From a virus, in IMG/VR virus record IMGVR_UViG_3300031368_000001, positions 1-64,000 of that record: 64,000 bases of DNA; one strand, given 5' to 3'. The notes beneath the pieces were generated by a model. The model searched no databases and was not told where the DNA came from. It worked only from the letters and a program-made list of their open reading frames with translations. The translations under genes and the position numbers were made by a program. Positions 11,726 to 26,935 of the stretch are shown here, one piece after another (the stretch's first letter is position 1; each line of letters starts with the position of its first letter).

Positions 11726-12142
11726 TTACCCTGTATTGTTTACTTTATACTTTCTCAACAACGCTGACTTATATCTCTCAAAAATTCTATCCGCTTTTTC
11801 TGGATCAGTATTACACACCAGAAGAAATCTTTTTCCCTCATCACGCAGGATTATGAAAGGAACAATGATATCCTCAACTCCTTCAAGAAATTTAGCAAAG
11901 ACCTGAGTTAAATTAGCTCGAAACACAAAAAAATCCTTAAGGAATTGACTTTCTTTACTCATTGCTTTTTTACTAATAATTGCTTTTTTACTACTCATTG
12001 CTTTTTTACTAATAATTGCTTTTTTACTAATAATTGCTTTTTTACTGGTAATTGCTTTTTTTTTACTGGTAATTGCTTTTTTTTTACTGATTATTCTTTC
12101 TCCCGTTATTTTCTCTACTCCCATTATTTTCTCTACTCCCAT
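11726..12142 (-). CDS. Hypothetical protein with N-terminal IISKKA repeats
   Basis: TAATG coupling to the upstream frameshift product; true start may be the internal MSKESQF. Confidence 0.5.
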   Translation of the reverse strand: MGVEKIMGVEKITGERIISKKKAITSKKKAITSKKAIISKKAIISKKAMSSKKAIISKKAMSKESQFLKDFFVFRANLTQVFAKFLEGVEDIIVPFIILRDEGKRFLLVCNTDPEKADRIFERYKSALLRKYKVNNTG

Positions 12143-12779: not shown

Positions 12780-13799
12780 TTAGGCATAAATTCTTTGCCT
12801 GAAATAGGGATACTCAGTGCTGGAATTGGGTCCATCTGCCAGTGGCGTAAATGTCAAAGCCATCTCAGCATCATCATCACTTTCTGAAATTATTTTCTTG
12901 GTGGCATCGGCCTTAACTGCACATTTCCAAAAAGTCCACTCAATTTTTTTTCCATACTCATTTTGTGGTAGAATATGAATTTCATAGTGGTCAACGGCAG
13001 AATCACTTTCCTGGATAACAACATCTGAGATAGCAGCATAATCGTAGATAGCCTGCAAAGCAGGATCACCCACAGCGATAGTCACTCCAGAATAGATGAA
13101 TATTGTGCCAGATTTTTCGTGTATGCCATAGTCTGTATTCAGCGTATATTTCTTATCTTTTACATTATTCAGCAAGACTATATCATTGAGGATTGATTGG
13201 GTACCATTGACTACTGCAGCCCCCGCTACGCCATCAGTGATAGCTTCATCATTTACAAAGGTACCGGTCACTCCTACCAGATAAAGAGTTCCAGATTCCA
13301 CAGTCCCATCTACAAATGCAATGTGCCCCGTGGCTCCGCCAGCGCCTGTCACTGTATCACCATTCGCAAAAGCTCCGGTTCCACCATCGTAAAGAAGCTT
13401 TACACAAGTCACTCCCTTTTTGGCGAGTGCAAATGCTCTATCCAAAGCAGAAGGTACAGTAACACTTTCAGGGGCAGCAAAGGTGTAATTATCTCCAGCC
13501 TGAGTGTAGAGCGCTTTAACGCCATTAAATAAAATCGCAAAGTTATCGCCATTCTCCGAGATGATGGTTATCGGGATCGAGTAATCAGTCTGAACTATCC
13601 GTTCATAGATTTTTTTCTTAGTACCATCACGGGGCGAATATCTGTTTTTAACGGTGTCTGCAATTTTAAGCTCTGTCTCCATACAATAACCTAGATCGAT
13701 TCCTTCATTGACTACTGCGTTATTAATGATAGGATATGCTATAACAATGCCCTTCGGGACGGTGACATCGTCAATGGTTTGAATACCTTGTATTGCCAT
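12780..13799 (-). CDS. Major tail tube protein with inserted beta domain
   Basis: DLGYC...YS motif, acidic beta-rich 339 aa, position before chaperone; RBS AGGAGGAGG. Confidence 0.7.
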   Translation of the reverse strand: MAIQGIQTIDDVTVPKGIVIAYPIINNAVVNEGIDLGYCMETELKIADTVKNRYSPRDGTKKKIYERIVQTDYSIPITIISENGDNFAILFNGVKALYTQAGDNYTFAAPESVTVPSALDRAFALAKKGVTCVKLLYDGGTGAFANGDTVTGAGGATGHIAFVDGTVESGTLYLVGVTGTFVNDEAITDGVAGAAVVNGTQSILNDIVLLNNVKDKKYTLNTDYGIHEKSGTIFIYSGVTIAVGDPALQAIYDYAAISDVVIQESDSAVDHYEIHILPQNEYGKKIEWTFWKCAVKADATKKIISESDDDAEMALTFTPLADGPNSSTEYPYFRQRIYA

Positions 13800-13823: not shown

Positions 13824-14297
13824 TTAATACCAGCCAACATCACGATGATAAAATTCACCATAATGTCCGAGATAAGGATATCTAAAAGGACAAACTTGCT
13901 TTTCTCCAGCAATTATCTTTTCAGCATCACGAGGCCAGCCTTTTTTTATAATGTCTTTATGTCTTTTAGTAAGATCCTTTTTCGCAGCTGCTCTAACTAA
14001 AACATCTTCGATTTCAATGGCACTTGCATCATAATCTCGAATGAGTTTTCTTGCAGGTCCAAGAAATTCTTTTTCAACAGCTGATTCTGGTACTTTAGGC
14101 CACCAAGATGGAATTTGTCCTGAAGTTTTTAAGCCTAGTTCCATTTCAGCTTTTGCTACTTTTTTATTTATTAGAGTATCAGTTTCTTTTTCCATTTGTT
14201 TTTTCTGTTTTTCTGTTGGTTTCTTCATTATAGTCAATCCTGCAAATTTTTCACTCCCAGTCGTTATATCTTCGCTAAATGGTTTTATTTTATCCAT
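13824..14297 (-). CDS. Tagged-family protein (orphan copy)
   Basis: N-terminal KPFSEDITTG, C-terminal YGEFYHRDVGWY. Confidence 0.85.
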   Translation of the reverse strand: MDKIKPFSEDITTGSEKFAGLTIMKKPTEKQKKQMEKETDTLINKKVAKAEMELGLKTSGQIPSWWPKVPESAVEKEFLGPARKLIRDYDASAIEIEDVLVRAAAKKDLTKRHKDIIKKGWPRDAEKIIAGEKQVCPFRYPYLGHYGEFYHRDVGWY

Positions 14298-14318
14298 GAT
14301 TATCTCCTTGAAAAATTT

Positions 14319-14786
14319 TTACCTATTAGCTAAAAAGCTTCCCGATGTTCTCGCAGAAGCTCTTCCTACCAATGTATACTCATAATCCTGTCCATAAATA
14401 GTTAAGTTTTTATCATGATAAATCATAGTTTCGCTTAAAAGATCCAGATAATAAAAAGTTCCTGTCACGGAAAGCTTAACATGATCAAGCACACCAGGAA
14501 CATCTTCCAATAAACTATAAGCATCAATCCGTGCTGCTGTAACACTTCTAAGGTTTTTAGCACCAAGAAAAATGGTTAGTCTTCTGGTCCCGGTAAGAGC
14601 CTGATTTACGCGTGAAAAAGAACCTCCGCCATAAAGAATCAGGGCACAGGGTAGAATATATCGAAGTCCGGATAGGCCTTCTGCATCAAAATCTCCCTGA
14701 TATCTTTTAACCGTATTAATAGAAGGGAGTTCAGCTTTGATTAAAGCTATTACAGCATCTTCAAGTTCTTCTATTTTTGTAGTCAT
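14319..14786 (-). CDS. Mu gp37-like (DUF1834) tail terminator/completion protein
   Basis: IEELEDAVI...VKRYQGDF...PCALILY...AYSLLE pattern; follows gp36-like gene. Confidence 0.7.
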   Translation of the reverse strand: MTTKIEELEDAVIALIKAELPSINTVKRYQGDFDAEGLSGLRYILPCALILYGGGSFSRVNQALTGTRRLTIFLGAKNLRSVTAARIDAYSLLEDVPGVLDHVKLSVTGTFYYLDLLSETMIYHDKNLTIYGQDYEYTLVGRASARTSGSFLANR

Positions 14787-14806
14787 CTAAATTTTACTCT
14801 CCAATT

Positions 14807-15274
14807 TTACCAATCGTCAAGTGAACCCCCCTCAAGGTCCCATTGACCCATCATATCACCTAACAAATTACCATCTACGTCAACTTTTCCTCTAGTAAAT
14901 TCTGGCTTCACATCTATAGCAGCTGAATCAGGTCCAACCTCAGCAATATCAAGCTGGATGTCTCCATCACGAATAGCTTTTAATTTTTCAACGGCGGCAA
15001 GATATCGTACTAAACGATCTGCTGGGGGACTCTCTCGTCTGGAATAAAGATTATAGATAGCAATATCCACTGACATTTTTCTTACTTCATTGGTAACTGT
15101 AAGTGGAACTATATACTTTTTACGACAGTATATATCTATCTCGCTATCTGCATCTTCGATAGCTCTTGTGATTACAGTTTCGACAATGCTTCCAGTAGCT
15201 AAATCATCTGTGAGTTCAACAAGATGGGATAGCTGAATAGAATTTTCTAAATCAGCTTGTATGGAGTAGGCCAT
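14807..15274 (-). CDS. Mu gp36-like (DUF1320) head-tail adaptor
   Basis: MAYSIQADL...AIEDADSEIDIY...DIAIYNLY...RY..A...L..IRDG. Confidence 0.85.
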   Translation of the reverse strand: MAYSIQADLENSIQLSHLVELTDDLATGSIVETVITRAIEDADSEIDIYCRKKYIVPLTVTNEVRKMSVDIAIYNLYSRRESPPADRLVRYLAAVEKLKAIRDGDIQLDIAEVGPDSAAIDVKPEFTRGKVDVDGNLLGDMMGQWDLEGGSLDDW

Positions 15275-15582
15275 AGAATTCTCCTATTTATTCATATAAA
15301 GTGTGATTAGATCTCCAATATTCTTAGGTTTTTGAACTAAGATTATCTTTGATTTACTTTTATTATTTTCAGAGATCGAGGTAAGAGCTAAAGTTCTTTT
15401 TTTAAAAATTTTATGAAGAAATCTTTTGAACATTCACAAACCTCCTTAAATTATTTAACACAAAAGATAGAAGAAAAGTCAAGGTTTATTCCTGGTGAGA
15501 AATCCTCAGCTTCAAAAAAAAATCCTCAGCTTCACATAAAAACTATGTGGAAACCAAGGATTGAATTAATTTATAAAGATTG

Positions 15583-16779
15583 TTATACAGTTCCTGACGA
15601 ACTGCTTGAAGATTCAGAACTACTTGAAGATTCAGAACTTGAACTAGATTCAGATGAACTGCTTGAAGATTCAGAACTTGAACTAGACTCAGATGAGCTG
15701 CTTGATGATTCAGAACTTGAGCTTGATGAAGACTCTGAGCTGCTTGATGATTCAGAAGAGCTGCTTGATGATTCAGAAGAGCTGCTTGATGATTCAGAAC
15801 TTGAAGATGAAGATTCTGAAGATGAGCTGCTTGATGATTCAGAACTGGAGCTTGATTCAGATGAGCTGCTTGATGATTCAGAACTGGAGCTTGATTCAGA
15901 TGAGCTGCTTGATGATTCAGAACTGGAGCTTGATGATTCAGATGAGCTGCTTGATGATTCAGAACTTGAACTAGATTCAGATGAGCTGCTTGATGATTCA
16001 GAACTGGAGCTTGATGATTCAGATGAGCTGCTTGATGATTCAGAACTTGAGCTTGATTCAGACGAGCTGCTTGATGAAGACTCTGATGATGAGCTACTTG
16101 ATGATTCTGAACTGCTGCTTGATTCAGACGAACTACTTGATGATTCAGAACTGGAGCTTGATTCAGACGAACTACTTGATGATTCAGAACTGGAACTTGA
16201 TTCAGATGAGCTACTTGATGAAGATTCTGATGATGAACTGCTTGATGATTCAGATGAACTGCTTGATGATTCAGATGAGCTGCTTGATTCAGATGAGCTG
16301 CTTGATTCAGAAGAGCTACTTGATGACTCAGAACTTGATGAAGAAAGAGGTTCAGTGAAGGCCATTCTCACGAATTTTCCACTAGCAAAGAAGTATTGTA
16401 TGGCTACATCCCCTCCAGTTTCATTTTTCGCTGAAAATTTATCTACAACAAGATCGCCAAGCTCATTATTCCAGACAGTTCCAAGTTCAGCAATATTCCA
16501 TGCAATATCAGGCCCATTATTAAATTTAAGAGTAAGATTTCCATCAGACAGTATAAAACCAACAGTAGCAGGAGTATTATATCCAAGCTCGATTGAATGT
16601 CCAGCAGCAGCAGTCCATGTAGCTTCATGTTTGAGTCTTAACAATCCTCCAACATCTAAAGAGAAAGTAGTACCTGTTGATATCACTACATTTGCAGACA
16701 GATATTCTGTAGGAAAAGAATCAGAAAAGAGCTGAGCTAAAAGCTGCTCTGGGAGCAGAGTTTTCATCTTTGAGGGCAT
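15583..16779 (-). CDS. Protein with ~140-aa N-terminal domain and ~250-aa Ser/Glu tail
   Basis: RBS AGGAG; SSSE repeats to the C-terminus. Confidence 0.8.
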   Translation of the reverse strand: MPSKMKTLLPEQLLAQLFSDSFPTEYLSANVVISTGTTFSLDVGGLLRLKHEATWTAAAGHSIELGYNTPATVGFILSDGNLTLKFNNGPDIAWNIAELGTVWNNELGDLVVDKFSAKNETGGDVAIQYFFASGKFVRMAFTEPLSSSSSESSSSSSESSSSSESSSSSESSSSSSESSSSSSSESSSSSSSESSSSSESSSSSSESSSSSESSSSSSESSSSSESSSSSSSESSSSSSSESSSSSESSSSSSESSSSSSESSSSSSESSSSSESSSSSSESSSSSSESSSSSSESSSSSESSSSSSESSSSSESSSSSSSESSSSSSESSSSSSESSSSSSESSSSSESSSSSSSESSSSSSESSSSSESSSSSSESSSSSESSSSSESSSSSSGTV

Positions 16780-16830
16780 TAGTTATCGTTACTCCTGGTA
16801 AAAAAAAGACCATCACTGATTTAAATGTGC

Positions 16831-17100
16831 CTAATCTGGCGGACCATCGCTCCAAGTATCTTGAGACGAGTATGTGCCAGAAATACCTCGATTAGTATTA
16901 CGACTTACACTTCGTCCTCGACTTACACTTCGTCCTTGACCTAGTCCGCCTCTGAGAGGACCAACTCCTAAACCCCGATTATCACGACCTCTGTTAACAT
17001 TAGGATTTAGATAGCCTGGATGATCATAGCCTGCACAATAACCTGCCTGCCTGCCTGTTTTTTTGCCTGCCCCTCGCGGGCCAGTTCTATCACCTAACAT
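16831..17100 (-). CDS. DUF5320-like Gly/Arg-rich protein
   Basis: GDRTGPRGAGKKTGRQAGYCAGY motif; RBS AGGAG. Confidence 0.7.
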   Translation of the reverse strand: MLGDRTGPRGAGKKTGRQAGYCAGYDHPGYLNPNVNRGRDNRGLGVGPLRGGLGQGRSVSRGRSVSRNTNRGISGTYSSQDTWSDGPPD

Positions 17101-17113
17101 GGTTTAGTCTCCT

Positions 17114-18064
17114 TTACTTATACGCCACAAAAGCCAACCCATCGTAAGTACTATTGTCTGACATACCAACAATGAAATCATTTGTAGCTTCGTAGTGTGT
17201 AAAATAATTTGTGTGTTCAACGCCCTGGATAGCTACATTATCTGTTCCAAATGCTTCAATGGACATAATGACACTTAAAACACCATCTGATACTATATTT
17301 ACTGCAAGGGCTTCTTCGTCAGCTACAGCCCACTTGTACATTGCATCTAAGTAAATAGTAAATGCTCCATGATTTGTTGCACCGGCAGTAGATAATAGTA
17401 TATTCAGATCGCTAACATCATCCCCATTTCCAGCAGCTAATGAAGAAATATCAATTTCAACCCATGTCCATTTTTTTGCAGATACTGCCGGAAGATTAAA
17501 ATTTGTGAGAACTGGTCCAGTATCAACTGTTTGAACATATAAATCACCAGCAGCTAACCTATCGGTAGAATAAATCCAGAATCCAATACTATCATCAACT
17601 TCTAAATCATCATTAGCTCCGATGGTCCCGATAGCGCCATTACCTGCAACGGCAGCAGATGTAAAAGCAACTTTTAATGAATTAGCGCCTGCACGATAAA
17701 TATCTGTATCCGCTGTAAGCGTTACCGGAGTTCCAACATTAGTCCATTCACCAGTGGGAGAATCATCCAGGTATACTCTAGTTTCACCACTAGCATCACT
17801 CGCATCCGTCAGTGTCCCAAGAGCTACCAACTTAAGTTTTGGCAGTCCTGTAATTGATGTTGTAGTTCCTTGATTTCCGCTGGGATGATCTGCTACGTAG
17901 ATATTGCCTTTAACTAATACATTTCCAGGAAATATCTTAGAATAAACAACCTCACCTGTAGCAGTATTGAGGAAAAACACCATCGCAACAAACAAAACAG
18001 AAATTGCTGACATCGATATAAGGAGAGTTTTCCAGTGAAAAATTTTCTTAAACATTTTAAACAC
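17114..18064 (-). CDS. Signal/TM-anchored protein with carbohydrate-binding-like beta sandwich
   Basis: GTG start with GGAGG; hydrophobic N-terminus; IGFWIY...KWTWVEIDIS...IYLD. Confidence 0.6.
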   Translation of the reverse strand: MFKMFKKIFHWKTLLISMSAISVLFVAMVFFLNTATGEVVYSKIFPGNVLVKGNIYVADHPSGNQGTTTSITGLPKLKLVALGTLTDASDASGETRVYLDDSPTGEWTNVGTPVTLTADTDIYRAGANSLKVAFTSAAVAGNGAIGTIGANDDLEVDDSIGFWIYSTDRLAAGDLYVQTVDTGPVLTNFNLPAVSAKKWTWVEIDISSLAAGNGDDVSDLNILLSTAGATNHGAFTIYLDAMYKWAVADEEALAVNIVSDGVLSVIMSIEAFGTDNVAIQGVEHTNYFTHYEATNDFIVGMSDNSTYDGLAFVAYK

Positions 18065-18132
18065 CTCCAGTTAAAGAAATTACATTTCCAGTTAAAGAAA
18101 AGTTAAAAATTATCAGCTTAATCCAGTACTCA

Positions 18133-18492
18133 TTACTCAAATCCGGTAAGTTCTTTAACACGCCTTTCAATAAACTTGGTAATTGAGACTCTCGGAAATT
18201 CTTCAGCATTTGCCTGATCCAGATATTTTTCAAGCATATCTACATGAGGTTCTGCCTCAAGAAATTCCTTTGCTTCAGCTACTGTCATTTGAGAAAGATC
18301 TGCAATTACAGGAATCTCATTACCAGCCGGCTTGCTTGGTCTCTCCTTGCTTTTTTTAATAGCACCATTTTCAAGAAGAGTATTTCTATCAGCTGGCTTA
18401 AAAAAATCTTTTTCAACAATCTGTCCTACCACCAGCTGATAGCTCTTACCATTTTTTCCGTACTTTACCTGACGAACAAGTTCAAAGCTCAT
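18133..18492 (-). CDS. Small head-associated protein after the capsid gene (HeH/Rho-N-like C-terminus)
   Basis: DLSQMTVAEAKEFL...PRVSI; position; RBS GAGG. Confidence 0.55.
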   Translation of the reverse strand: MSFELVRQVKYGKNGKSYQLVVGQIVEKDFFKPADRNTLLENGAIKKSKERPSKPAGNEIPVIADLSQMTVAEAKEFLEAEPHVDMLEKYLDQANAEEFPRVSITKFIERRVKELTGFE

Positions 18493-18588
18493 ATAACCTC
18501 CTTTTTTTTAGAGACTGAGAAAACTTTTTTTTCGTAAGACTAAGAAAACTCAGTGAGCTTTGATTAATCAACGTAATTACTTGAAATA

Positions 18589-19542
18589 TTACGCTATTAC
18601 GGTTTGAAATAAATACCCGGCGGTGGAACACACGCACTTCTCATCTGAAATTTGATGCTGAATACGGATTACATCAGACTTCTTTGGTTTATCCTCGTAT
18701 GTTTCAGCCTGTAAACCTGCACTCTTTAGAGTGTAAGCAAAACTCATCGTTTTCTTAGACGGTCTTGGATTGACTATTCCAACCCATACATTCTTTCCCC
18801 AGACACGTGAAATTGCTTCTGCAACACCAGGCATAGTGGTAATTTCTCTGGCACCTGGAAACACTGCATTAAGACCAAACAGCCTTCTTGGAAAACCATC
18901 GTCGGTTAATTGCCGGGAATCTTGTTCTCTCATTAAGGCACGAATAGCAGGATGTCGTCTGACTGTTCTCCAAACGGTAACAGGAATAGCAATCGTATTT
19001 GGCTCAGCAGCATTCAGGGATACTTTTTCCCTTGCATCCTCAATATCCCCTTCAGGATCAGAGTTTACAAAATCATCCCACATATTTCCACCGGCAAGGG
19101 CATTGATGTAAGTACCATCAAAGTACACACCATTTGCTACTGCTACATTTGTAAACATGTCTGCAATTCGGACTTCATAGTTAAGCAATAAGAGCTCAAG
19201 AGTGATTTCCTGAGTAGTGACTGCAAGATCCATATACTTCTTCCACTTTTTAAACTCGCGCCAGTCAATTGCTTTTTCCAGCGTATGCTCTTCGCAGTGA
19301 TAACTATCGGTCGATGTTTTCCAATCGAACGTGGTTGCCCTTGCACCCAGTGCTCTGATATCATCATAAGAACTGTTAAGATTGGTCTTATCAAAAATAA
19401 AATAAGTTCCATCTTCTTCACCCTCAGGGACGTCTACATAAGGAGCAAGCTTTGATGCAACCAGTCCATTCTGCGGGTAAGCAATGGCCATTTTTGTTAA
19501 GACCGGGTTGATCAAAACCTGATCTGTTTTGGTAATAAACAT
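18589..19542 (-). CDS. Major capsid protein (HK97 fold, Phage_cap_E-like)
   Basis: NPVLTKMAIAY...LAPYVDV...W...SDP..DI...PN...HP...AGYLF; RBS GGAGGTG. Confidence 0.9.
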   Translation of the reverse strand: MFITKTDQVLINPVLTKMAIAYPQNGLVASKLAPYVDVPEGEEDGTYFIFDKTNLNSSYDDIRALGARATTFDWKTSTDSYHCEEHTLEKAIDWREFKKWKKYMDLAVTTQEITLELLLLNYEVRIADMFTNVAVANGVYFDGTYINALAGGNMWDDFVNSDPEGDIEDAREKVSLNAAEPNTIAIPVTVWRTVRRHPAIRALMREQDSRQLTDDGFPRRLFGLNAVFPGAREITTMPGVAEAISRVWGKNVWVGIVNPRPSKKTMSFAYTLKSAGLQAETYEDKPKKSDVIRIQHQISDEKCVCSTAGYLFQTVIA

Positions 19543-19679
19543 GATAAGTCACCTCCGTAACATTAAAACTGTTACAATTAATTAATAGGTTTCTCACAAT
19601 CAACATCATGGATGTGATTATGACACTAAACCTCATAGAGGCAACTTAAGCATTACTTAAGTTAAAGAAATTTTTAAAA

Positions 19680-19852
19680 CTGGCCTAATATAATTAAGCC
19701 AGTGTTAATAACAAGCTAATATTAATCAGCCAGTTAATTACAAGCTAATATTAATTAGCCAGTGTTAATTACAAGCTAATATTAATTAGCCAGTGTTAAT
19801 AACAAGCTAATATTAATCAGCCAGTGTTAATAACAAGCTAATATTAATCAGC
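19680..19852. repeat. ~31-bp tandem repeat x~5.5 between decoration and capsid genes
   Basis: agccagtgttaataacaagctaatattaat units with no spacers. Confidence 0.9.
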
Positions 19853-20302
19853 CTTGACTACGATAGTACGAGTCAGAAACAGCTTAAATTTTGCTTTGGC
19901 TACACATCCTTCTAAAGCGATTCCTGCGATCATTTTACCAGTATAGCTAGCGCCAGTAATTGTTTGAAACCAACCATTATCAGAATCCACAGCAGCATTG
20001 ATGGCTTCCACCAATGCATTTCTGATTATTCCAGCACCATCATAACAATATGCCCATGTAGGACCAAACAATACGACCTTGACAGTCTCACCCTCGAGAC
20101 CATCTTCTTGGGCAACGCCTTCAATGATAGCTCCAATAGTTGTATCATCACCAGCTTCCAACGCGTGTACCTGATAATCATTTGAACCAGGTTTTACGGC
20201 ATGGTACTGATAAACACGTTCATCGTTGTTATTTAATTCTACAGTATAGCTCCCATGAAATGGATTATCCAAGGGAATAGCTGGAGTTGCTCTTCTAGAC
20301 AT
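19844..20302 (-). CDS. Capsid cement/decoration protein (DUF2190-like)
   Basis: GVAQED...GETVKVVLFG...AGIALE; between scaffold and capsid genes. Confidence 0.75.
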   Translation of the reverse strand: MSRRATPAIPLDNPFHGSYTVELNNNDERVYQYHAVKPGSNDYQVHALEAGDDTTIGAIIEGVAQEDGLEGETVKVVLFGPTWAYCYDGAGIIRNALVEAINAAVDSDNGWFQTITGASYTGKMIAGIALEGCVAKAKFKLFLTRTIVVKAD

Positions 20303-20391
20303 GATTCTTCACCTCCTAGTTATAAAAATTATCAAATTACTTACAAAAATTACTTACAAAAATTACCTACAAAAAATACCTACAGAGAAAA

Positions 20392-21414
20392 CTACTTTCC
20401 TTGAGTATCCATGACAGCCTTAAAGGCTACATCATAGGAGACTTTATTCTCCTCGGCGTACTTGGTTATTTCACGATCAAGCTTAGCGCCTTCTTCGTCA
20501 ACACCAGTTGGGGTAATTTCTTCTTCCTCTTCAATTACCTTACCAAATGTATCCAGAGGAACAAGCAGCTTGCCCTCTTTATGACGATCAATGATCGCAC
20601 TAAAGAGCTCAGAGAATTTTTGCCATGGAGTCTTTTCATCCTCACCCTCAGCAAACTTGAACATGTTCGTCCAGTCAAGGGCATTGGCATAATTCAATAA
20701 TCCAAGTTCATCAACCACTGCCGGGGCTAAGCCTTTCTTTTTCAGATCCTCGGCCCATCTCTGTACATCTTTCATATGAGATGCACGTTTCTCCGCTGAT
20801 CTTTCTTTTTCAACGATCCCGATTTTGCTTTCTTGAGCGGTGAGCTTGGATGTCAGATCAGAAATCTCGGTATTTTTTGCATTTAGCTGTTCGCTGAGAG
20901 CAGTTAATTGTTCCTGAACCTGCTTTAAATCCTCAGCATCCTTCTTGGGTGGTTCAGGGTATTTATATGGTGATGGCTTTTTGCCAACATTCGCCTTAGC
21001 CTTGGAGTCCGCTCCAACGATCTCTTCTCCCTTTTTGAAGTCACCTTCAACAGCGAGAAACACAGAGATTTTTTCAGGTTCTACTTTCCTGACTGTTCCG
21101 ATGAGCTTGCTATCTGCACCCTTAACTTTCTCACCTTCTTTAAATTCACCCTCAACTGCATTTATTTCAACCATAACAGTTTTTCCGGCAAACTTATTGG
21201 GATCTTCCTCACCGACAACAGCCTTTGCCTTTGACTTTGTTCCGGTTATTTCTTCGTCGTCCTGAAAGTTCTCTCCTGAGGTAAGAACAATGACTAATTT
21301 CTTTTCATCGAACTCCTCAAGCGTACCGACAACCTTTGATGCATTGCCAGTCACTTCCTCTCCAACCTCAAAATCCCCGGAGATGGATTTGATCGGTACA
21401 GTTATTTTCTTCAT
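20392..21414 (-). CDS. Internally initiated scaffold protein (Mu gpZ-like)
   Basis: In-frame ATG at 21414 preceded by AGGAGGTG. Confidence 0.7.
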   Translation of the reverse strand: MKKITVPIKSISGDFEVGEEVTGNASKVVGTLEEFDEKKLVIVLTSGENFQDDEEITGTKSKAKAVVGEEDPNKFAGKTVMVEINAVEGEFKEGEKVKGADSKLIGTVRKVEPEKISVFLAVEGDFKKGEEIVGADSKAKANVGKKPSPYKYPEPPKKDAEDLKQVQEQLTALSEQLNAKNTEISDLTSKLTAQESKIGIVEKERSAEKRASHMKDVQRWAEDLKKKGLAPAVVDELGLLNYANALDWTNMFKFAEGEDEKTPWQKFSELFSAIIDRHKEGKLLVPLDTFGKVIEEEEEITPTGVDEEGAKLDREITKYAEENKVSYDVAFKAVMDTQGK

Positions 21415-22197
21415 ATTGTCACCTCCTAGCCAAAATGTTTCTTCCTCACTGTCTGGCCGAACAATCGGTAGACAGAAAGAATCTTCGCGGTTATCCTCGC
21501 CGTACCTTGCAACGATATCACTAAGACTCTTTATCCTTGGAATATCGGCTCCCAACAGAGCAACTCTCCGGAGAACCGGCCCAAACTCTTGATTATCAAA
21601 AACAAAATTACGATATATCTCTACTGAAGGATAACGATATGCACCATTTTTAATAATGTCAACAATTTGTTTTGGGACATCTTTGAAATCTGCATAAAGT
21701 TTTTTCCCTTTAGTCCAAACTTTGGATACCCATCCGGCAGACGGAAGTCCAGATTTTTGTAATAGATCTTGATTTTCATCATGTCCAAGTACCACCATAG
21801 GTGGTCTATGCGAATCTTTCAGTTTAGAAAAATTTGCGATGATTTTGTTAAGATCTTCTTCAGTATACTTTTTAGATTCTGCCTGGCCTATTTCAAAAAT
21901 TTGAACTCCGTTACATTCACCAAATTCTTGAAAGTTTCCACTAAGTTGTGTGAGAAGAATAGGACAACCATGCTGGTATGCGTGTATACACTGCTTGATT
22001 GGCTCGAGGTCTGAAAAGTCATCTGTCATCGGACATTCGGGCGCAAAGTGACATAAAGATTTTGGCCAGGCATATTCAGGGTAAAGCTCAGTTTCAGGAA
22101 TTGGATATGGATAAGTTTCTTGACCTGTTGAATATGTCCATGGCAGTGAAAAATCTTCCTTTGGAAAAGGGAAGGGATGTTCGTAAATTTTTTTCAT
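20392..22197 (-). CDS. Mu gpI-like head maturation protease-scaffold fusion
   Basis: LGH...AGWV...LYADF..VP...YRYPSVE...VALLG..P; C-terminal coiled coil. Confidence 0.85.
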   Translation of the reverse strand: MKKIYEHPFPFPKEDFSLPWTYSTGQETYPYPIPETELYPEYAWPKSLCHFAPECPMTDDFSDLEPIKQCIHAYQHGCPILLTQLSGNFQEFGECNGVQIFEIGQAESKKYTEEDLNKIIANFSKLKDSHRPPMVVLGHDENQDLLQKSGLPSAGWVSKVWTKGKKLYADFKDVPKQIVDIIKNGAYRYPSVEIYRNFVFDNQEFGPVLRRVALLGADIPRIKSLSDIVARYGEDNREDSFCLPIVRPDSEEETFWLGGDNMKKITVPIKSISGDFEVGEEVTGNASKVVGTLEEFDEKKLVIVLTSGENFQDDEEITGTKSKAKAVVGEEDPNKFAGKTVMVEINAVEGEFKEGEKVKGADSKLIGTVRKVEPEKISVFLAVEGDFKKGEEIVGADSKAKANVGKKPSPYKYPEPPKKDAEDLKQVQEQLTALSEQLNAKNTEISDLTSKLTAQESKIGIVEKERSAEKRASHMKDVQRWAEDLKKKGLAPAVVDELGLLNYANALDWTNMFKFAEGEDEKTPWQKFSELFSAIIDRHKEGKLLVPLDTFGKVIEEEEEITPTGVDEEGAKLDREITKYAEENKVSYDVAFKAVMDTQGK

Positions 22198-22225
22198 GAT
22201 CTAACCTCGTACTAACATTCTTAAG

Positions 22226-22804
22226 TTATTCAGCATAAGATATATCAGGATGCATAAATCCGTCTTTATCAATATCCGCAAATCCCCAGGCCTTTATTAC
22301 AACATTTGCATCTGAACCTTTGGGAGCAACCTTTGGATCTGTATATCGAGTAAATCCAGTTTCAGGTCCCTTCTTATAGAGTTTTTCCACATCGCTGATT
22401 TCTACTTTTGAGAAACCCATTTTCAGCAATGCGTCTCTTTGCTCTTTTTCATAATATCCTGCAAAACCAGGAAGCTTCTTATTCTCAGGAACACTTTCCA
22501 GAAGTTTTTTCTCTTCAGATGTTAATTCTCGATTTATCGAAATACTATCACCTGTGGTGATATCATCACTAAAAGCTTTAATCTTTGGTTGATCCAAAGG
22601 TTCCTGAGAAACTTCGTTAGGTTCATGAGAAACTTCGTTAGGTTCATGAGGAACTTCGTTAGGTTCATGAGGAACTTCGTTAGGTTCATGAGGAACTTCG
22701 TTAGGTTCATGAGGAACTTCGTTATAATTTCTATCGCCTTCACCCCCTGTTGTTTCTTCTACTCTTCCCGTCGTTATGTCTTCTGAAAAAGGTTTTATTT
22801 CCAT
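22226..22804 (-). CDS. Tagged-family protein (two N-motifs, divergent C-tag FMHPDISYAE)
   Basis: KPFSEDITTG and KAFSDDITTG; EPNEVPH repeats. Confidence 0.8.
   Translation of the reverse strand: MEIKPFSEDITTGRVEETTGGEGDRNYNEVPHEPNEVPHEPNEVPHEPNEVPHEPNEVSHEPNEVSQEPLDQPKIKAFSDDITTGDSISINRELTSEEKKLLESVPENKKLPGFAGYYEKEQRDALLKMGFSKVEISDVEKLYKKGPETGFTRYTDPKVAPKGSDANVVIKAWGFADIDKDGFMHPDISYAE
22596..22722. repeat. 21-bp in-frame tandem repeat x6 (EPNEVPH)
   Basis: ttcgttaggttcatgaggaac units. Confidence 0.9.
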
Positions 22805-22827
22805 GATCTAACCTCGTTAATTAAAAA

Positions 22828-23445
22828 CTAATACCAGCCTACATCTCTGTGATAATATTCGCCAAGCTTTATTCCCCAACTTTTCCCGGGAATCCACATT
22901 TTCTTCATTACTTCAAGTAAATTTCTCCAGTACTCCTCAAATGCCCTCTTTTCTTTATCAAGAATTCTTGGATCAATCTTGCCACGCTCGTCTCTGGGAA
23001 TAGCTTTTTCCCACTCTACCCAGTGAAATTCTTTTGCTTTTTTTGTGGTTTCTGGATCTTGGAAATCTTCGCTCTGGAAGTTTTTATTCTTGAGGTTTTC
23101 GGAATTTTTGGAGATTAAAATTTTTGGAAATATCTTTTTAAATAATTTTGGCCAGCCAACTACCAAGATTTGTTTTTGCTTTTCAACAATATCCTTACCA
23201 GCGAATAATGCTTGAGCTGCATTATCTACCTCTTTTGACTCAGTTTCAAGGGTATCTTTAACTCTCTTATATCCTGGTTCAAGACCGTCACCAGTTGCTA
23301 GTAGCATCCATTGACTATAAAGTTTTCTGCGTGTGATAGGGTTGATTTGGAAGATATCAGTGGGAGCTGAAGAATTCAAAGATTCATCGTATGTTTCGAC
23401 ATGACCCTGAATATCTGATGAGAAAGATTTTATTGTTGTTGCCAT
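22828..23445 (-). CDS. Tagged-family protein
   Basis: KSFSSDIQGHVE ... LGEYYHRDVGWY. Confidence 0.85.
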   Translation of the reverse strand: MATTIKSFSSDIQGHVETYDESLNSSAPTDIFQINPITRRKLYSQWMLLATGDGLEPGYKRVKDTLETESKEVDNAAQALFAGKDIVEKQKQILVVGWPKLFKKIFPKILISKNSENLKNKNFQSEDFQDPETTKKAKEFHWVEWEKAIPRDERGKIDPRILDKEKRAFEEYWRNLLEVMKKMWIPGKSWGIKLGEYYHRDVGWY

Positions 23446-23451
23446 AAAGTT

Positions 23452-23481
23452 ACCCTAACAGACATAAAAAATTTTTGTCAA
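23452..23481 (-). promoter_or_regulatory. Putative late promoter TTGACA-N18-TAGGGT
   Basis: Same motif and spacing as 27732..27761. Confidence 0.5.
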
Positions 23482-23588
23482 CCCTTTTTTAAACAAGAAT
23501 AGTGATATTTAAACAAGAATAGTGATATTTAAGTAAGAATAATGGAAAAAGAAAAAATTAGTCAAGGTTTTTTTAGTATACTCTTTTT

Positions 23589-24242
23589 TTAGTACCACCC
23601 AACATCTCTGTGGTAATATTCACCAGATTTCTCCAAAAACCCTTCAACAACCGGTATATATCCAGCACTTCTCAAAAATTCTCCAGCTTTGTGTCTTTTC
23701 AGGGCTGCTAAATCCTTCTTACTTAATTTTTTTGCCCATTCAGGTTTTGTGAGTCGCATTATTTTCTTGCCAGCCTCTTCTTGAGTAACACCAAGATCTC
23801 TCATCAAACCTTGCGTAACGGAACGATCGGTTATTCCCGCTTTCTGAGCTGCCTGAAATCTAAGCCATCTGTTATCCTGCTTCCTTAAAAATTCCACTAA
23901 ATCTTTATTATATTTCTGGGAGTTCCAACCCTGATACTGAGTATGTTTAACATCATCCCAAAGACGATTTTTTTCTTCATGAATCCAGGCTTCCCGAAGA
24001 TGTGTAGCGCCTACCATCTGTATGTAGAGATTAGCTTTATCTACATAAGTTTTGGCATTTTTTAGATCATCAGCGGTTACTTCAGACGGTTTTTTGATGG
24101 GACCTGTATAAATAGGGGTGTGTTTTGGCTGGGTAGGAACCTCAATTTTAGCACCAGGGAAATCTATAATATCACCTGGATCAAAGAAAGTTCCTGTGGA
24201 TATATCTTCTGAGAAGGGTTTAAGAGTATTCATATTAATCAT
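23589..24242 (-). CDS. Tagged-family protein
   Basis: KPFSEDISTG ... SGEYYHRDVGWY. Confidence 0.85.
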   Translation of the reverse strand: MINMNTLKPFSEDISTGTFFDPGDIIDFPGAKIEVPTQPKHTPIYTGPIKKPSEVTADDLKNAKTYVDKANLYIQMVGATHLREAWIHEEKNRLWDDVKHTQYQGWNSQKYNKDLVEFLRKQDNRWLRFQAAQKAGITDRSVTQGLMRDLGVTQEEAGKKIMRLTKPEWAKKLSKKDLAALKRHKAGEFLRSAGYIPVVEGFLEKSGEYYHRDVGWY

Positions 24243-24252
24243 TTCCTTATGT

Positions 24253-24945
24253 TTAATACCACCCTACATCTCTGTGGTAATACTCACCAAACGAACCTAG
24301 GTTAGCTTCACCTTTAATTTCTACACCTTTTGGTGTGTAGGCTTTTCTTCCTTTTATGATCACATCTACTTTTCTTTTCCATATTCCTTTATGTTCTTTG
24401 AGATATTTCAGTGCCTGATTCACCGACCAGCCACTCTTTTCCACTAAATTGCTCACTTCCCACCGGGTTACTCCCCAGGGTGGAATTCCTCTATGCTCCT
24501 CACCGCCTTTTATACTCTGTACTTTCAGAATATTATTTCTAGAATAACCCATATCCCGTAGAATCTTATCATGAAATGTAAAATCTCCTCCAGTCCCTAT
24601 AGCCAAAGCAGCTCCTAATTGTGCTACATACCGATTCAGTATTTTTGAATCAAGCTTAAGTTTTGGATTTTCTTTATTAAGCACTGCCGCCACTTTTTCT
24701 GCTCTTTCATCCCATATTTCCTGACGAATCCCTCCACCAGGTTGCACTGGGCTATTTCTATAAATTGGTTCTTTTCTTTCTTTTGGCTGTAGAGTAACAA
24801 GTTTTAAAATATCTTCGAGCAGACCAAACTCATCCGGGACACCGTAAGTAATATCGTCAGAGAATGGTTTAACAAACGAACCTTCTGGTATTTCTGGAAG
24901 ACTTGTTTGTTCATTTATATCGTCAGAAAATGATTTCATGTCCAT
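24253..24945 (-). CDS. Tagged-family protein (two N-motifs)
   Basis: KSFSDDI and KPFSDDITYG ... FGEYYHRDVGWY. Confidence 0.85.
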   Translation of the reverse strand: MDMKSFSDDINEQTSLPEIPEGSFVKPFSDDITYGVPDEFGLLEDILKLVTLQPKERKEPIYRNSPVQPGGGIRQEIWDERAEKVAAVLNKENPKLKLDSKILNRYVAQLGAALAIGTGGDFTFHDKILRDMGYSRNNILKVQSIKGGEEHRGIPPWGVTRWEVSNLVEKSGWSVNQALKYLKEHKGIWKRKVDVIIKGRKAYTPKGVEIKGEANLGSFGEYYHRDVGWY

Positions 24946-25034
24946 GATTTATTTAATATCACCCTTTGTCCTTATGATAGTATTTGTAACACAAGAATTT
25001 TCCGTTAATTTTTTTATTTATAGCGACCCAGATT

Positions 25035-25424
25035 TTATTCTCCTCTCTGTGCAAATGGGCTTTTACCATCATTGATTCTCTTCATTGCATGTTTTATAGC
25101 TTTATCAACTATCCGTTTAGTAGGTTTATTTCCTTTAAGAAGATAATTAATTTCATCCTTTGTTAATGTAGGCACAAGAGATGGTATTTCTATTTCTTTG
25201 CCATCTATACCTACACCGATAGATAACTCAGTAGATATATGCCCATCTGGTCTTTTTAATGTACCTAAAAATCCCGGGCCTTTAGGAGTACCATCCGTCC
25301 TTAATCCCCATCCTTTTTCTCTAACTGTTTCTTTATGATCGAAAAAATCAGCTTGAGACCTGGTAAAAGATTCATCATAATTTTCAACATGCCCCTGGAT
25401 ATTTGAGGAAAATGGCTTGAACAT
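25035..25424 (-). CDS. Tagged-family protein lacking an in-frame C-tag
   Basis: ATG at 25424 right after the upstream stop; MFKPFSSNIQGHVENYDES. Confidence 0.8.
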   Translation of the reverse strand: MFKPFSSNIQGHVENYDESFTRSQADFFDHKETVREKGWGLRTDGTPKGPGFLGTLKRPDGHISTELSIGVGIDGKEIEIPSLVPTLTKDEINYLLKGNKPTKRIVDKAIKHAMKRINDGKSPFAQRGE

Positions 25425-25425
25425 C

Positions 25426-26205
25426 TTAATACCACCCCACGTCTCTGTGATAATATTCACCATATAATCTAAATGTTTTTTCACTAACAGGATATTTACC
25501 ATCCAGAAGCTTTATGCCTCCTAAAATTCCCCATCCTCTTACAATGATTTGTGTTTCATGAGGATTGAGTATTTCACCTTTTGCTGCTTTCTCCACAGTA
25601 AGCCTAACATCTCTGGCAGATACATTTAAAGTTTTGATAGCTTTTGATGCATGATAGGTATACGTATCTTTTTTTGGATCATGCCACCACCATGTAGGAA
25701 CTACCCCAGGACTTGCATAAATTTTTTCCTGTTCTTTTGCTGAAAGTGCAATCTGTTCCTTTCCTCTTGCTTTTACAGGTTTTTTCACAAGTTCATCGAT
25801 CTGAGCCTTAAGATGTTTCTGAAGCTCCTTCGGAATGGGTTCTTTACCTTCAAGGATTCTTGATAGGCGATAGTCATTATCATGAAATTCGAGAAAGTTT
25901 AAAAGCTCTTTATTATATGCTGAAGATTTAGGGCCTTGAAGCTGTAGATATTTCTCGTCTTTCCAGAGACTATCTAATTTATACTCTATCCACTTCTTTC
26001 TATTATCCTCTATAATACCAGCCTGATCAAAATATATTTTGACTTTTTCATCTAAGTCCTTACCTTGTTGAAGCTGATTAACAGTGACATCGGAGTAAAA
26101 AATAGGAGTTGGTTCTGTAAGATTTATTCCTATAGAATCCGGTGTGGAATCTACTCCTGTGAAATCTGCTCCTGTAGATATAGTTTCTGAAAAGGATCTG
26201 AGCAT
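25426..26205 (-). CDS. Tagged-family protein
   Basis: RSFSETISTG ... YGEYYHRDVGWY. Confidence 0.85.
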   Translation of the reverse strand: MLRSFSETISTGADFTGVDSTPDSIGINLTEPTPIFYSDVTVNQLQQGKDLDEKVKIYFDQAGIIEDNRKKWIEYKLDSLWKDEKYLQLQGPKSSAYNKELLNFLEFHDNDYRLSRILEGKEPIPKELQKHLKAQIDELVKKPVKARGKEQIALSAKEQEKIYASPGVVPTWWWHDPKKDTYTYHASKAIKTLNVSARDVRLTVEKAAKGEILNPHETQIIVRGWGILGGIKLLDGKYPVSEKTFRLYGEYYHRDVGWY

Positions 26206-26206
26206 C

Positions 26207-26935
26207 TTAATACCATCCTACATCTCTGTGATAATATTCACCAAAACTTCTTATTGCCCTCATTGTCTTTTCAGGAAATTCGCGTTTTCCTTTTATAATC
26301 CTCTCTGCTTCATATGAAGGCCAGCTTAATCGTATCATCCGTTTATCTGCTTCGGTTATATTTCCTGCTGCAGCTCTCTTAATTGCTTTTTCCACATCAG
26401 CGGCTGAGGCCCCCTGACCTTCTATTACTTTTTTTATGTAATAGGTTAAACTTTTTGTGGCTGGTACGGGATCCCACCATGGAGGAACATGCCCACCAGT
26501 ATTCCATATTCGTTCCTTATCGCGCTTTGTTATTCCAGGAACTTTTTTCTTGATTAGATCTTCAATCTCTTTCTTCATTGCCGCTACTTTCTCGGTAGGC
26601 ATATGGGTTCCTACATCTTTTATGCCTCTAAAACCAAACTCTTTATCTGCTGTCTGACAAGCCTTCAAGAAATTCTTGTTATAATAATCTCCTTGAAAAC
26701 CACCTGGATCTAAATACTGCCAATCTACCCAGGTATCTTTTAGTTTTTTCAGAATGAAATTTTTGTGCTTGGTATTAATAACTCTAGCATATTTGAAATA
26801 TAATCCTAATTTCTCTTTTTGGGTTCTTCCATGTCTGATATATCCTATCGTTACATCTTCAGGAGCGAAGGAATCTATTGTACTATCTATATAATTTTTA
26901 ACACTACCCTGTACGCTATCTGAAAAAGTTTTCAT
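26207..26935 (-). CDS. Tagged-family protein
   Basis: ATG at 26935 with GAGG RBS; KTFSDSVQG ... FGEYYHRDVGWY. Confidence 0.85.
   Translation of the reverse strand: MKTFSDSVQGSVKNYIDSTIDSFAPEDVTIGYIRHGRTQKEKLGLYFKYARVINTKHKNFILKKLKDTWVDWQYLDPGGFQGDYYNKNFLKACQTADKEFGFRGIKDVGTHMPTEKVAAMKKEIEDLIKKKVPGITKRDKERIWNTGGHVPPWWDPVPATKSLTYYIKKVIEGQGASAADVEKAIKRAAAGNITEADKRMIRLSWPSYEAERIIKGKREFPEKTMRAIRSFGEYYHRDVGWY

Follow-up and report, generated by a model that had tools for sequence, protein, structure and literature searches.

A clade-specific family of phage proteins with conserved peptides at both ends, encoded beside a head maturation protease and possibly packaged in the head

The phage represented by IMG/VR virus record IMGVR_UViG_3300031368_000001 carries eight genes whose proteins share a short N-terminal motif centered on Phe-Ser and, in six cases, a nearly identical C-terminal tag that ends in Gly-Trp-Tyr. 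The window analyzed here is the first 64 kb of this 108,285-bp record, for which a completeness of 77% was estimated. Seven of the genes (members 1 to 7, numbered in the direction of transcription) lie in tandem directly upstream of a head maturation protease gene and the eighth, the orphan, lies between neck and tail genes. The feature is genuine, has solid statistical support and has not been described before. We read the genes as a clade-specific family of internal head proteins that would be addressed to the head by short terminal peptides, and we give this reading a probability of about 0.5. Its supports are circumstantial but consistent: the operon position in six contigs, the location of the peptides at flexible ends, selection at the peptide level, the basic character of the family and its confinement to one head-gene lineage. 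The C-terminal tag is the new element as compared with known head addressing, and overall the system is most likely a known principle with an unusual C-terminal tag.

An initial annotation of the DNA had listed eight genes with the N-terminal motif (N motif), six of them tagged, and all of these are present on the minus strand between positions 13824 and 26935. In all eight the pattern [KR]-[PST]-F-S-[EDS]-[DTNS]-[IV] occurs within 1-8 residues of the initial Met, and six of the eight end in GE[YF]YHRDVGWY directly before the stop codon. A degenerate DNA pattern for YHRDVGWY matched the window six times, as compared with no match in 100 shuffles, and was found nowhere else in the 108-kb record. 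Searching a six-frame translation of the whole record with a regular expression for the N motif retrieved only the eight genes and one further gene outside the window, which encodes a tagless protein of 120 residues.

The conserved ends are maintained as peptides. Pairwise comparison of the six tags gave differences at 60 of 165 third codon positions and at 10 of 330 first and second positions, the latter all being synonymous Arg exchanges (CGT/AGA) or a single Tyr-to-Phe change. In the N motif, AGC as well as TCN codons are used for the invariant Ser. Since the tag differences are mainly at third or synonymous positions and the Ser codons are mixed, selection acts on the peptide and not on the DNA, as the initial annotation had noted for the tag. 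The ends are under far stronger peptide-level selection than the bodies. These data bear directly on the proposal that the shared ends are recombination or gene-conversion cassettes at gene borders that have no function as peptides. Repeats do occur at the gene junctions, and at the tags metagenome contigs from related phages end or become dissimilar, with loose ends at 24253 and 24307. However, the tag copies are only 86% identical in DNA, their differences are concentrated at synonymous sites, and the peptides stay constant across phages whose DNA has diverged widely. Cassettes at the DNA level are effectively refuted by this codon analysis, and gene conversion or recombination does not account for the conserved ends.

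The family extends beyond this phage. A set of 83 non-identical members was assembled, with lengths of 113 to 744 residues and all from uncultured phages. A word-index search with the 242-residue member 1 gave only five clusters of relatives, all with both ends, and a profile search of 1.84 billion representative proteins gave 46 clusters. Scanning JGI metagenome contigs for the tag yielded 22 loci, many of which are tandem arrays of up to seven genes with both motifs in each. Across the 83 members the Phe and Ser of the N motif and the Gly and final Tyr of the tag are invariant, and the Ile, Gly, Glu, Tyr, His, Asp and Trp of the motifs show a conservation of at least 90%. In extended form the consensus of the N motif is M-[DN]-[ET]-[IL]-[KR]-[PTS]-F-S-E-[DG]-I-[SNQT]-x-G and that of the tag is [ES]-N-[VI]-I-P-x-G-E-[FY]-Y-H-[RK]-D-[VK]-G-W-Y. 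With few exceptions the N motif begins between residues 2 and 13, and the tag forms the C-terminal end in all 83, with one extra Ser in six of them. The proteins are basic, the median isoelectric point (pI) of the family being 9.1.

Comparison of the family with 50,697 isolate phage genomes by tblastn gave no match, and a literature search for the peptide strings found the motif in no paper. The eight window proteins had no match in PHROG and none above the curated cut-off in Pfam. These results agree with the initial annotation, in which the motif was not recognized from any described phage. Exact tag patterns, an alignment-based family search and a search for close relatives with the protease each gave no match in IMG/VR; looser tag patterns retrieved only two distant contigs from that database and one mis-binned contig of a metagenome-assembled genome from a genome collection. 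The source phage is uncultured and known only from salt-marsh metagenomes. Near-identical DNA is present in several such metagenomes from 2019, all of which are DNA, and no RNA run is listed among the sequencing runs that hold the phage.

The linkage to the head protease, scaffold and capsid genes, which the initial annotation had proposed to test, is tight and recurs in related phages. Tagged genes lie directly upstream of the PHROG 976 protease gene in six contigs, namely the window and the related L010, L020, L031, L032/L035 and L036, the last with a tagged repeat protein of at least 383 residues. Stop and start codons at junctions of family genes are often 1 nt apart or overlapping. The adjacency to the protease gene and the close-set codons place the genes in the head-assembly operon. 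This position is difficult to combine with a role of the unpackaged proteins in the infected cell, where the ends would be recognized by another machine that regulates all of the family jointly, for example a chaperone, a modifying enzyme, or a protease or degradation system. Recognition by modifying enzymes, like that of degrons, typically involves motifs at extreme ends, and the invariant Ser of the N motif and the His and Asp of the tag could be chemically active. Yet besides the adjacency to the protease/scaffold gene, the presence of one copy among neck and tail genes, the restriction of the family to phages with this head module and the protamine-like basic peptides of distant relatives described below all argue against such a role, which we consider unlikely.

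Distant relatives of the head genes are accompanied by a diverged form of the tag. The two IMG/VR contigs mentioned above have proteases that are 47-49% identical to that of the window, and the gene just upstream encodes a small protein with the diverged tag NIVPLGDNFNPAVGWY or NNIVPVGSNYNVQVGWY; in one of the contigs this small gene overlaps the protease start. One of the two contigs has two further such genes, which end in NPRVPAGSNFLPGHGWY and NPRVPQGSNFHPSVGWY. The diverged tags follow the pattern ..P-x-G-x-N-[FY]-x-x-x-[VH]-G-W-Y, and the proteins that carry them have 63-130 residues and a pI of 10.2-10.9 and are rich in Tyr, Pro and Arg or in Gly and Lys. Most of them have no N motif, and no tagged gene was found near two more remote proteases (34-36% identical). 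Since the tag of the distant relatives mostly occurs without the N motif and is absent near the remoter proteases, the tag is the older feature and is tied to this head-gene lineage. From these sequences, the tag appears to have begun on protamine-like peptides; in the clade of the window it would then have spread over tandem sets of folded paralogues, with the N motif as an addition. The composition of the distant relatives would fit DNA-associated internal proteins. For the family as a whole, a DNA-associated structural or charge-neutralizing role would fit the basic composition at least as well as a payload for anti-defense or host takeover.

The protamine-like relatives, with a pI above 10, fit DNA contact better than display on the capsid surface. 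They thereby bear on a reading of the family as external decoration or cement proteins that are anchored by the aromatic tag, with the paralogues at different surface sites. Although the genes lie within the head module, a short aromatic tag could plug into a capsid pocket and several paralogues could match the quasi-equivalent sites of a large capsid, genes for decoration proteins are normally located between the scaffold and capsid genes, which is here the place of the gene for a 152-residue protein (p152). Moreover, the two structures predicted with AlphaFold2 (AF2) show no immunoglobulin-like or beta-rich fold in the bodies. We judge external decoration to be very improbable.

The statement in the initial annotation that the middles of the proteins are very different holds for members 3, 4, 6 and 7, each of which has a distinct body, but not for members 1, 2, 5 and the orphan, whose bodies are homologous with 20-36% identity. 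Greedy iterative clustering with hidden Markov models (HMMs) divided the bodies between the termini into at least 10 classes. Five of these are represented in the window, one by members 1, 2, 5 and the orphan and the others by members 3, 4, 6 and 7 separately. An iterative HMM of the helical domain of the orphan detected this domain in 44 of 89 family proteins. The AF2 model of member 1 has a predicted local distance difference test (pLDDT) score of 82.9 with confident all-helical domains, and residues 1-21 and 231-242 score below 50. In the model of the 157-residue orphan (pLDDT 78.7) a helical core is flanked by termini that both have low confidence. The models suggest that both termini are flexible ends outside the fold, as would be expected for linear docking motifs. 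Foldseek comparison of the member 1 model with PDB and BFVD returned nothing at E ≤ 1e-3, VIA-align wide gave generic helical bundles only (best Z 5.2), and ESM Atlas gave no usable match.

Most members have both ends, at the extreme termini, and this raises the possibility that the ends are complementary. The C-terminal hairpin of one subunit would then bind the N-terminal strand of the next and join the paralogues head to tail in a heteromer such as an inner core or body or a fiber, and the ends would not act as separate addresses for individual passengers. Orthologues have a fixed order and identity across phages, as for parts of one assembly, two members have a duplicated N motif, and about half of the members have related, helical bodies. 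However, the ends also occur singly, since members 3 and 7 and the 120-residue protein (record 89230) have the N motif only and tag-only proteins are found in L031 and L032. Furthermore, the arrays of relatives range in size from 1 to 7 or more genes, and the AF2 monomer models give no hint of end pairing. Joining through complementary termini is in our view improbable. Also set aside were a covalent link of the N- to the C-terminal end and a split triad of Ser, His and Asp, since either end can occur on its own and the N motif has either Lys or Arg.

If the proteins are internal head proteins, they would be expressed together with the capsid protein and the protease/scaffold from one late operon, and recruitment to the assembling procapsid would occur via the short flexible terminal peptides. 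The tag, ..[NV]-[IV]-P-x-G-E-[FY]-Y-H-[RK]-D-[VK]-G-W-Y-COOH, probably forms a small aromatic hairpin and would be the older and more general address, docking on a head-assembly component such as the scaffold/protease protein, the inner face of the capsid or the portal. The N motif, M-x(0-11)-[IL]-[KR]-[PST]-F-S-E-x-I, would be a second, separable module that most likely acts like the capsid-targeting leader of T4 and P1, either as a core-binding signal or as a processing site for the Mu-gpI-like prohead protease. The basic bodies, which are helical in two modeled members, would stay with the packaged DNA and exit with it at infection. Packaging, the docking partner, cleavage and ejection are the steps that we infer. 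Complex prediction with the capsid protein, protease residues 1-262 and scaffold residues 415-601, and with the orphan as partner, gave a score of 0.01 in a run without controls, which counts neither for nor against binding. A more specific version is put forward tentatively. In it, the tag ..NVIP-x-GE[FY]YH[RK]D[VK]GWY would be a portable, sequence-defined capsid-loading peptide for the procapsid of a Mu-like tailed phage, equivalent in a true virus to the cargo-loading peptide of encapsulins, and together with a protease-processed N signal it would form a two-ended address for co-ejected DNA-associated proteins.

Several observations weigh against the assignment as packaged and ejected internal proteins. 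Neither end is obligatory, as the tag is absent or degenerate in members 3 and 7 and in the 120-residue protein, and some distant relatives have no N motif. The two ends are therefore separate modules. To our knowledge, phage capsid-targeting signals are N-terminal, and a C-terminal signal on internal proteins has no direct precedent except for the tails of proteases. A Pfam scan of the 83 members (E ≤ 1e-3) gave no domain beyond two isolated weak hits and nothing enzymatic, toxin-like or related to anti-defense; therefore, nothing points to a particular activity after ejection. The array proteins also evolve no faster than other accessory structural proteins: their identity to the L020 orthologues is 67-88%, as compared with 94% for the protease and 82% for the capsid protein and, among other accessory head proteins, 56% for p152 and 45% for p316. 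Finally, orthologues occur in the same order in the window, L009, L012 and L020, and partly in L010, and such a fixed order fits fixed structural roles better than an arms-race payload. Gene content does vary, with member 3 missing from L020 and three members without a window orthologue in L010.

The suggestion in the initial annotation that the proteins form a varied payload for anti-defense or host takeover is only partly supported. The bodies have indeed diverged beyond recognition by HMMs, but effector-like domains were not found, half of the proteins share one domain, the orthologues are positionally stable, and nothing specifically supports such a payload. The lack of effector domains, the shared helical domain and the fixed places in the array therefore suggest diverged paralogues with fixed roles and not captured, swappable payloads.

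The internal proteins of T4 are diverse and share only an N-terminal capsid-targeting sequence, which is removed by the prohead protease (PMC3012670, PMC7411985). Like the family described here, these proteins (IPI, IPII, IPIII and Alt) are otherwise diverse small proteins with a leader at the extreme N-terminus, which in T4 has about 10 residues; in the family a short conserved motif at the extreme N-terminus is likewise shared by dissimilar bodies (83 members, at least 10 classes). The T4 proteins are basic and travel with the DNA, and their tie to prohead assembly and the prohead protease resembles the gene linkage of the family (PMC3012670, PMC7411985). However, the N motif has no sequence similarity to the T4 leader, the protease is Mu-gpI-like and not gp21-like (PHROG 976; homologues matching PF10123), and PHROG and Pfam scans gave no homology to T4 internal proteins, their leader or the gp21 protease. 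The family also has a more strongly conserved C-terminal tag that the T4 internal proteins do not have. Its genes are arranged in tandem just upstream of that for the protease, and its cleavage and packaging are putative.

Several Dar proteins of phage P1 are incorporated into the head during morphogenesis, and for DarB an N-terminal signal of at most 30 residues is sufficient to bring a reporter into capsids (PMC9024508). The Dar proteins share no consensus signal (PMC9024508), whereas the peptides of the family are nearly invariant and occur at both ends. A large enzymatic protein like DarB is not present in the family.

Encapsulins load cargo through a short, conserved and flexible terminal peptide, usually C-terminal, that is present on different proteins encoded beside the gene for the HK97-fold shell. 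The family resembles such cargo in its conserved terminal peptide (83 of 83 members) and in the arrays within the capsid-gene operon, binding to the shell being putative. Unlike in encapsulin systems, the shell is that of a true tailed phage with portal, large terminase and tail genes in the record, and the tag has no similarity to known consensus sequences of cargo-loading peptides. A C-terminal targeting tail is known from the HK97 prohead protease gp4. In SPN3US, the C-terminal propeptide of the gp245 protease was proposed or shown to carry the protein into the prohead (PMC7411985). In these two cases the tail is on the protease itself, whereas here the tag is carried by other proteins, up to seven of them. 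The docking role proposed for the tag would be comparable in principle with that of encapsulin cargo peptides and of such tails.

In giant phages, paralogous ejection and inner-body proteins form multigene families. In phiKZ and SPN3US, abundant internal head proteins are loaded via N-terminal propeptides that are removed by the prohead protease (PMC7411985). These propeptides exceed 100 residues and are not a shared short motif; there is no C-terminal tag, and the head genes belong to a T4-like lineage. The family also differs from MuF polymorphic toxins and minor head proteins, as neither the PF04233 module nor a variable C-terminal toxin or enzyme domain was found in its members. PF04233 was not found in the 108-kb record either.

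If the reading as internal head proteins is correct, the tag would be the first sequence-defined C-terminal address peptide common to a whole family of such proteins, and the first to be combined with a T4-like N-terminal leader. Foreign proteins could then be loaded into an HK97-fold phage capsid by means of a compact tag of 11-17 residues, and packaged proteins of metagenomic phages could be found by a simple sequence signature. Furthermore, one branch of the clade would have tiny protamine-like tagged peptides as the counterpart of the folded paralogues that form arrays in another branch. Should this reading be incorrect, a family with invariant ends and with genes tied to the head protease remains unexplained.

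All family genes of the window are on the minus strand. Member 1 (242 residues, 26207..26935) starts with MKTFSDSVQG and ends in FGEYYHRDVGWY, its body consisting of two helical domains; orthologues at 54-83% identity retain both ends. The tagged member 2 (259 residues, 25426..26205) starts with MLRSFSETISTG and has a body homologous to that of member 1, and its start codon lies 1 nt past the stop codon of member 1 (TGGTATTAAGATG). Member 3 (129 residues, 25035..25424), without a counterpart in the close relative L020, starts with MFKPFSSNIQGH and has retained only the N motif. A decayed remnant of its tag, YKYYHKDKG*Y*, is present out of frame downstream (24959..24982, minus strand). The loss is due to a frameshift and a TGG>TGA change, and independent assemblies reproduce the identical sequence at the remnant.

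Member 4 (230 residues, 24253..24945) has two N motifs (MKSFSDDI and VKPFSDDITYG) and the tag, and its body is a class of its own. The double N motif is retained by the orthologues in L012, L013 and L020. Member 5 (217 residues, 23589..24242) carries LKPFSEDISTG and the tag, with an N-terminal domain homologous to that of member 2, and member 6 (205 residues, 22828..23445) carries IKSFSSDIQGH and the tag. Member 7 (192 residues, 22226..22804), whose gene immediately precedes that of the protease, has a pair of N motifs, heptad repeats of PNEVPHE and the degenerate end DGFMHPDISYAE, which is kept in the L020 orthologue. The number of PNEVPHE repeats (22609-22715) varies: a contig from a different sample (run X5) skips 105 nt, corresponding to five repeats. 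The L020 orthologue has 157 residues as compared with 192 for member 7.

The orphan (157 residues, 13824..14297) carries IKPFSEDITTG, ends in GEFYHRDVGWY and is encoded between the neck genes and the major tail gene; its orthologue in L014 sits within an array. The ninth gene with an N motif, for the tagless 120-residue protein, is located at 89230-89592 of the record on the minus strand (L007:4231-4593), and its product starts with MVEQIKPFSEDISTG. It adjoins the packaging module and not the head module, downstream of the portal gene and of a gene for a ligase-like protein of 1071 residues. The latter gene (record 89807-93022, minus strand; L007:4808-8023) lies directly downstream of the portal gene and encodes an ATP-dependent DNA ligase domain (PF01068, E 8e-14). 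Weaker Pfam matches to Hint and LAGLIDADG domains suggest an intein, and relatives of about 625 residues in L031 and L032, with similar C-terminal ends, appear to be without the insert. Comparison of the 1071-residue protein with the tagged family revealed no relationship.

The minus strand from about 27 kb down to position 1 of the window forms a head-to-tail module with genes for the family, the protease, p152, the capsid protein, a head-tail adaptor, a neck protein and the major tail protein. The protease gene (20392..22197, minus strand) encodes a head maturation protease with a scaffold-like C-terminal half, 601 residues in total (PHROG 976, E 1e-33). In its product a Cys/His-rich N-terminal extension precedes the protease domain (residues 90-235), which is followed by beta repeats and a coiled coil; the protein is 94% identical to that of L020 and 84% to that of L010. 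PF10123 (Mu-like_Pro, "Mu-like prophage I protein") is matched by 6 of 30 homologues. The C-terminal end of the protein (...AFKAVMDTQGK) is unlike the family tag.

The N-terminal extension of the protease (residues 1-90, window 21928-22197) is highly conserved and rich in Pro, aromatic residues, Cys and His (WPKSLC.HAPEC...C.HA...GCP). It occurs in the window, L031, L032 and L036, with a diverged form in L033, and judged from its sequence could be a metal-binding module ahead of the protease domain. The extension was dropped as a candidate marker of a receptor for the tag because L033 has a form of it without a tagged gene. Between the protease and coiled-coil parts, residues 263-414 (window 20956-21411) contain four half-repeats of the form G-[DE]-F-x-x-G-E-x-[VI]-x-G-x-x-S-K-A-x-A-x-V, which are not found in the shorter proteases of L031 and L032. 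A similar motif, G-x-F-x-x-G-[DE]-x-[VI]-T-G, is present in the major tail protein (12780-13799). In the scaffold half, the segment LDW...KF[AS]E.E.KT...KF[ST]E (residues 505-530, window 20608-20683) is conserved across 29 homologues, and its K-F-S-E element may faintly resemble the K-x-F-S-E of the family N motif.

Between the protease and capsid genes, p152 is encoded at 19844..20302 on the minus strand. A PHROG scan of p152 gave no match and its L020 homologue weakly matches the scaffolding family PHROG 673 (E 8e-4); p152 could serve in scaffolding or in decoration. The major capsid protein (317 residues, 18589..19542, minus strand; PHROG 1005, E 1.5e-51) is distantly Mu-gpT-like, with about 25% identity to major heads of Mu-like phages. 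Relatives of the capsid protein and protease at 45-70% identity occur on contigs of up to 72 kb. A head-tail adaptor and a major tail protein are also encoded in the record, as are a large terminase and a portal (PHROG 113, E 6e-85; record 93022-94659). The genes for the portal and the large terminase and a small-terminase-like gene are located at 96.5-93 kb of the record, apart from the head module.

The structural module also contains low-complexity DNA. A long repeat at 15413-16779, between the capsid-side genes and the head-tail adaptor, reads as a Ser-rich (SSSSES)n frame of 398 residues on the minus strand and as an Asp/Glu/Leu-rich frame of 440 residues on the plus strand. Two further low-complexity open reading frames of the minus strand are found at 16831-17100 (89 residues, Gly/Arg-rich) and at 11726-12142 (138 residues, KKAI[TI]SKK repeats). 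In L031 a Gly/Pro-rich open reading frame of 81 residues (13940-14185) lies downstream of the capsid gene, in a place like that of the 89-residue frame of the window.

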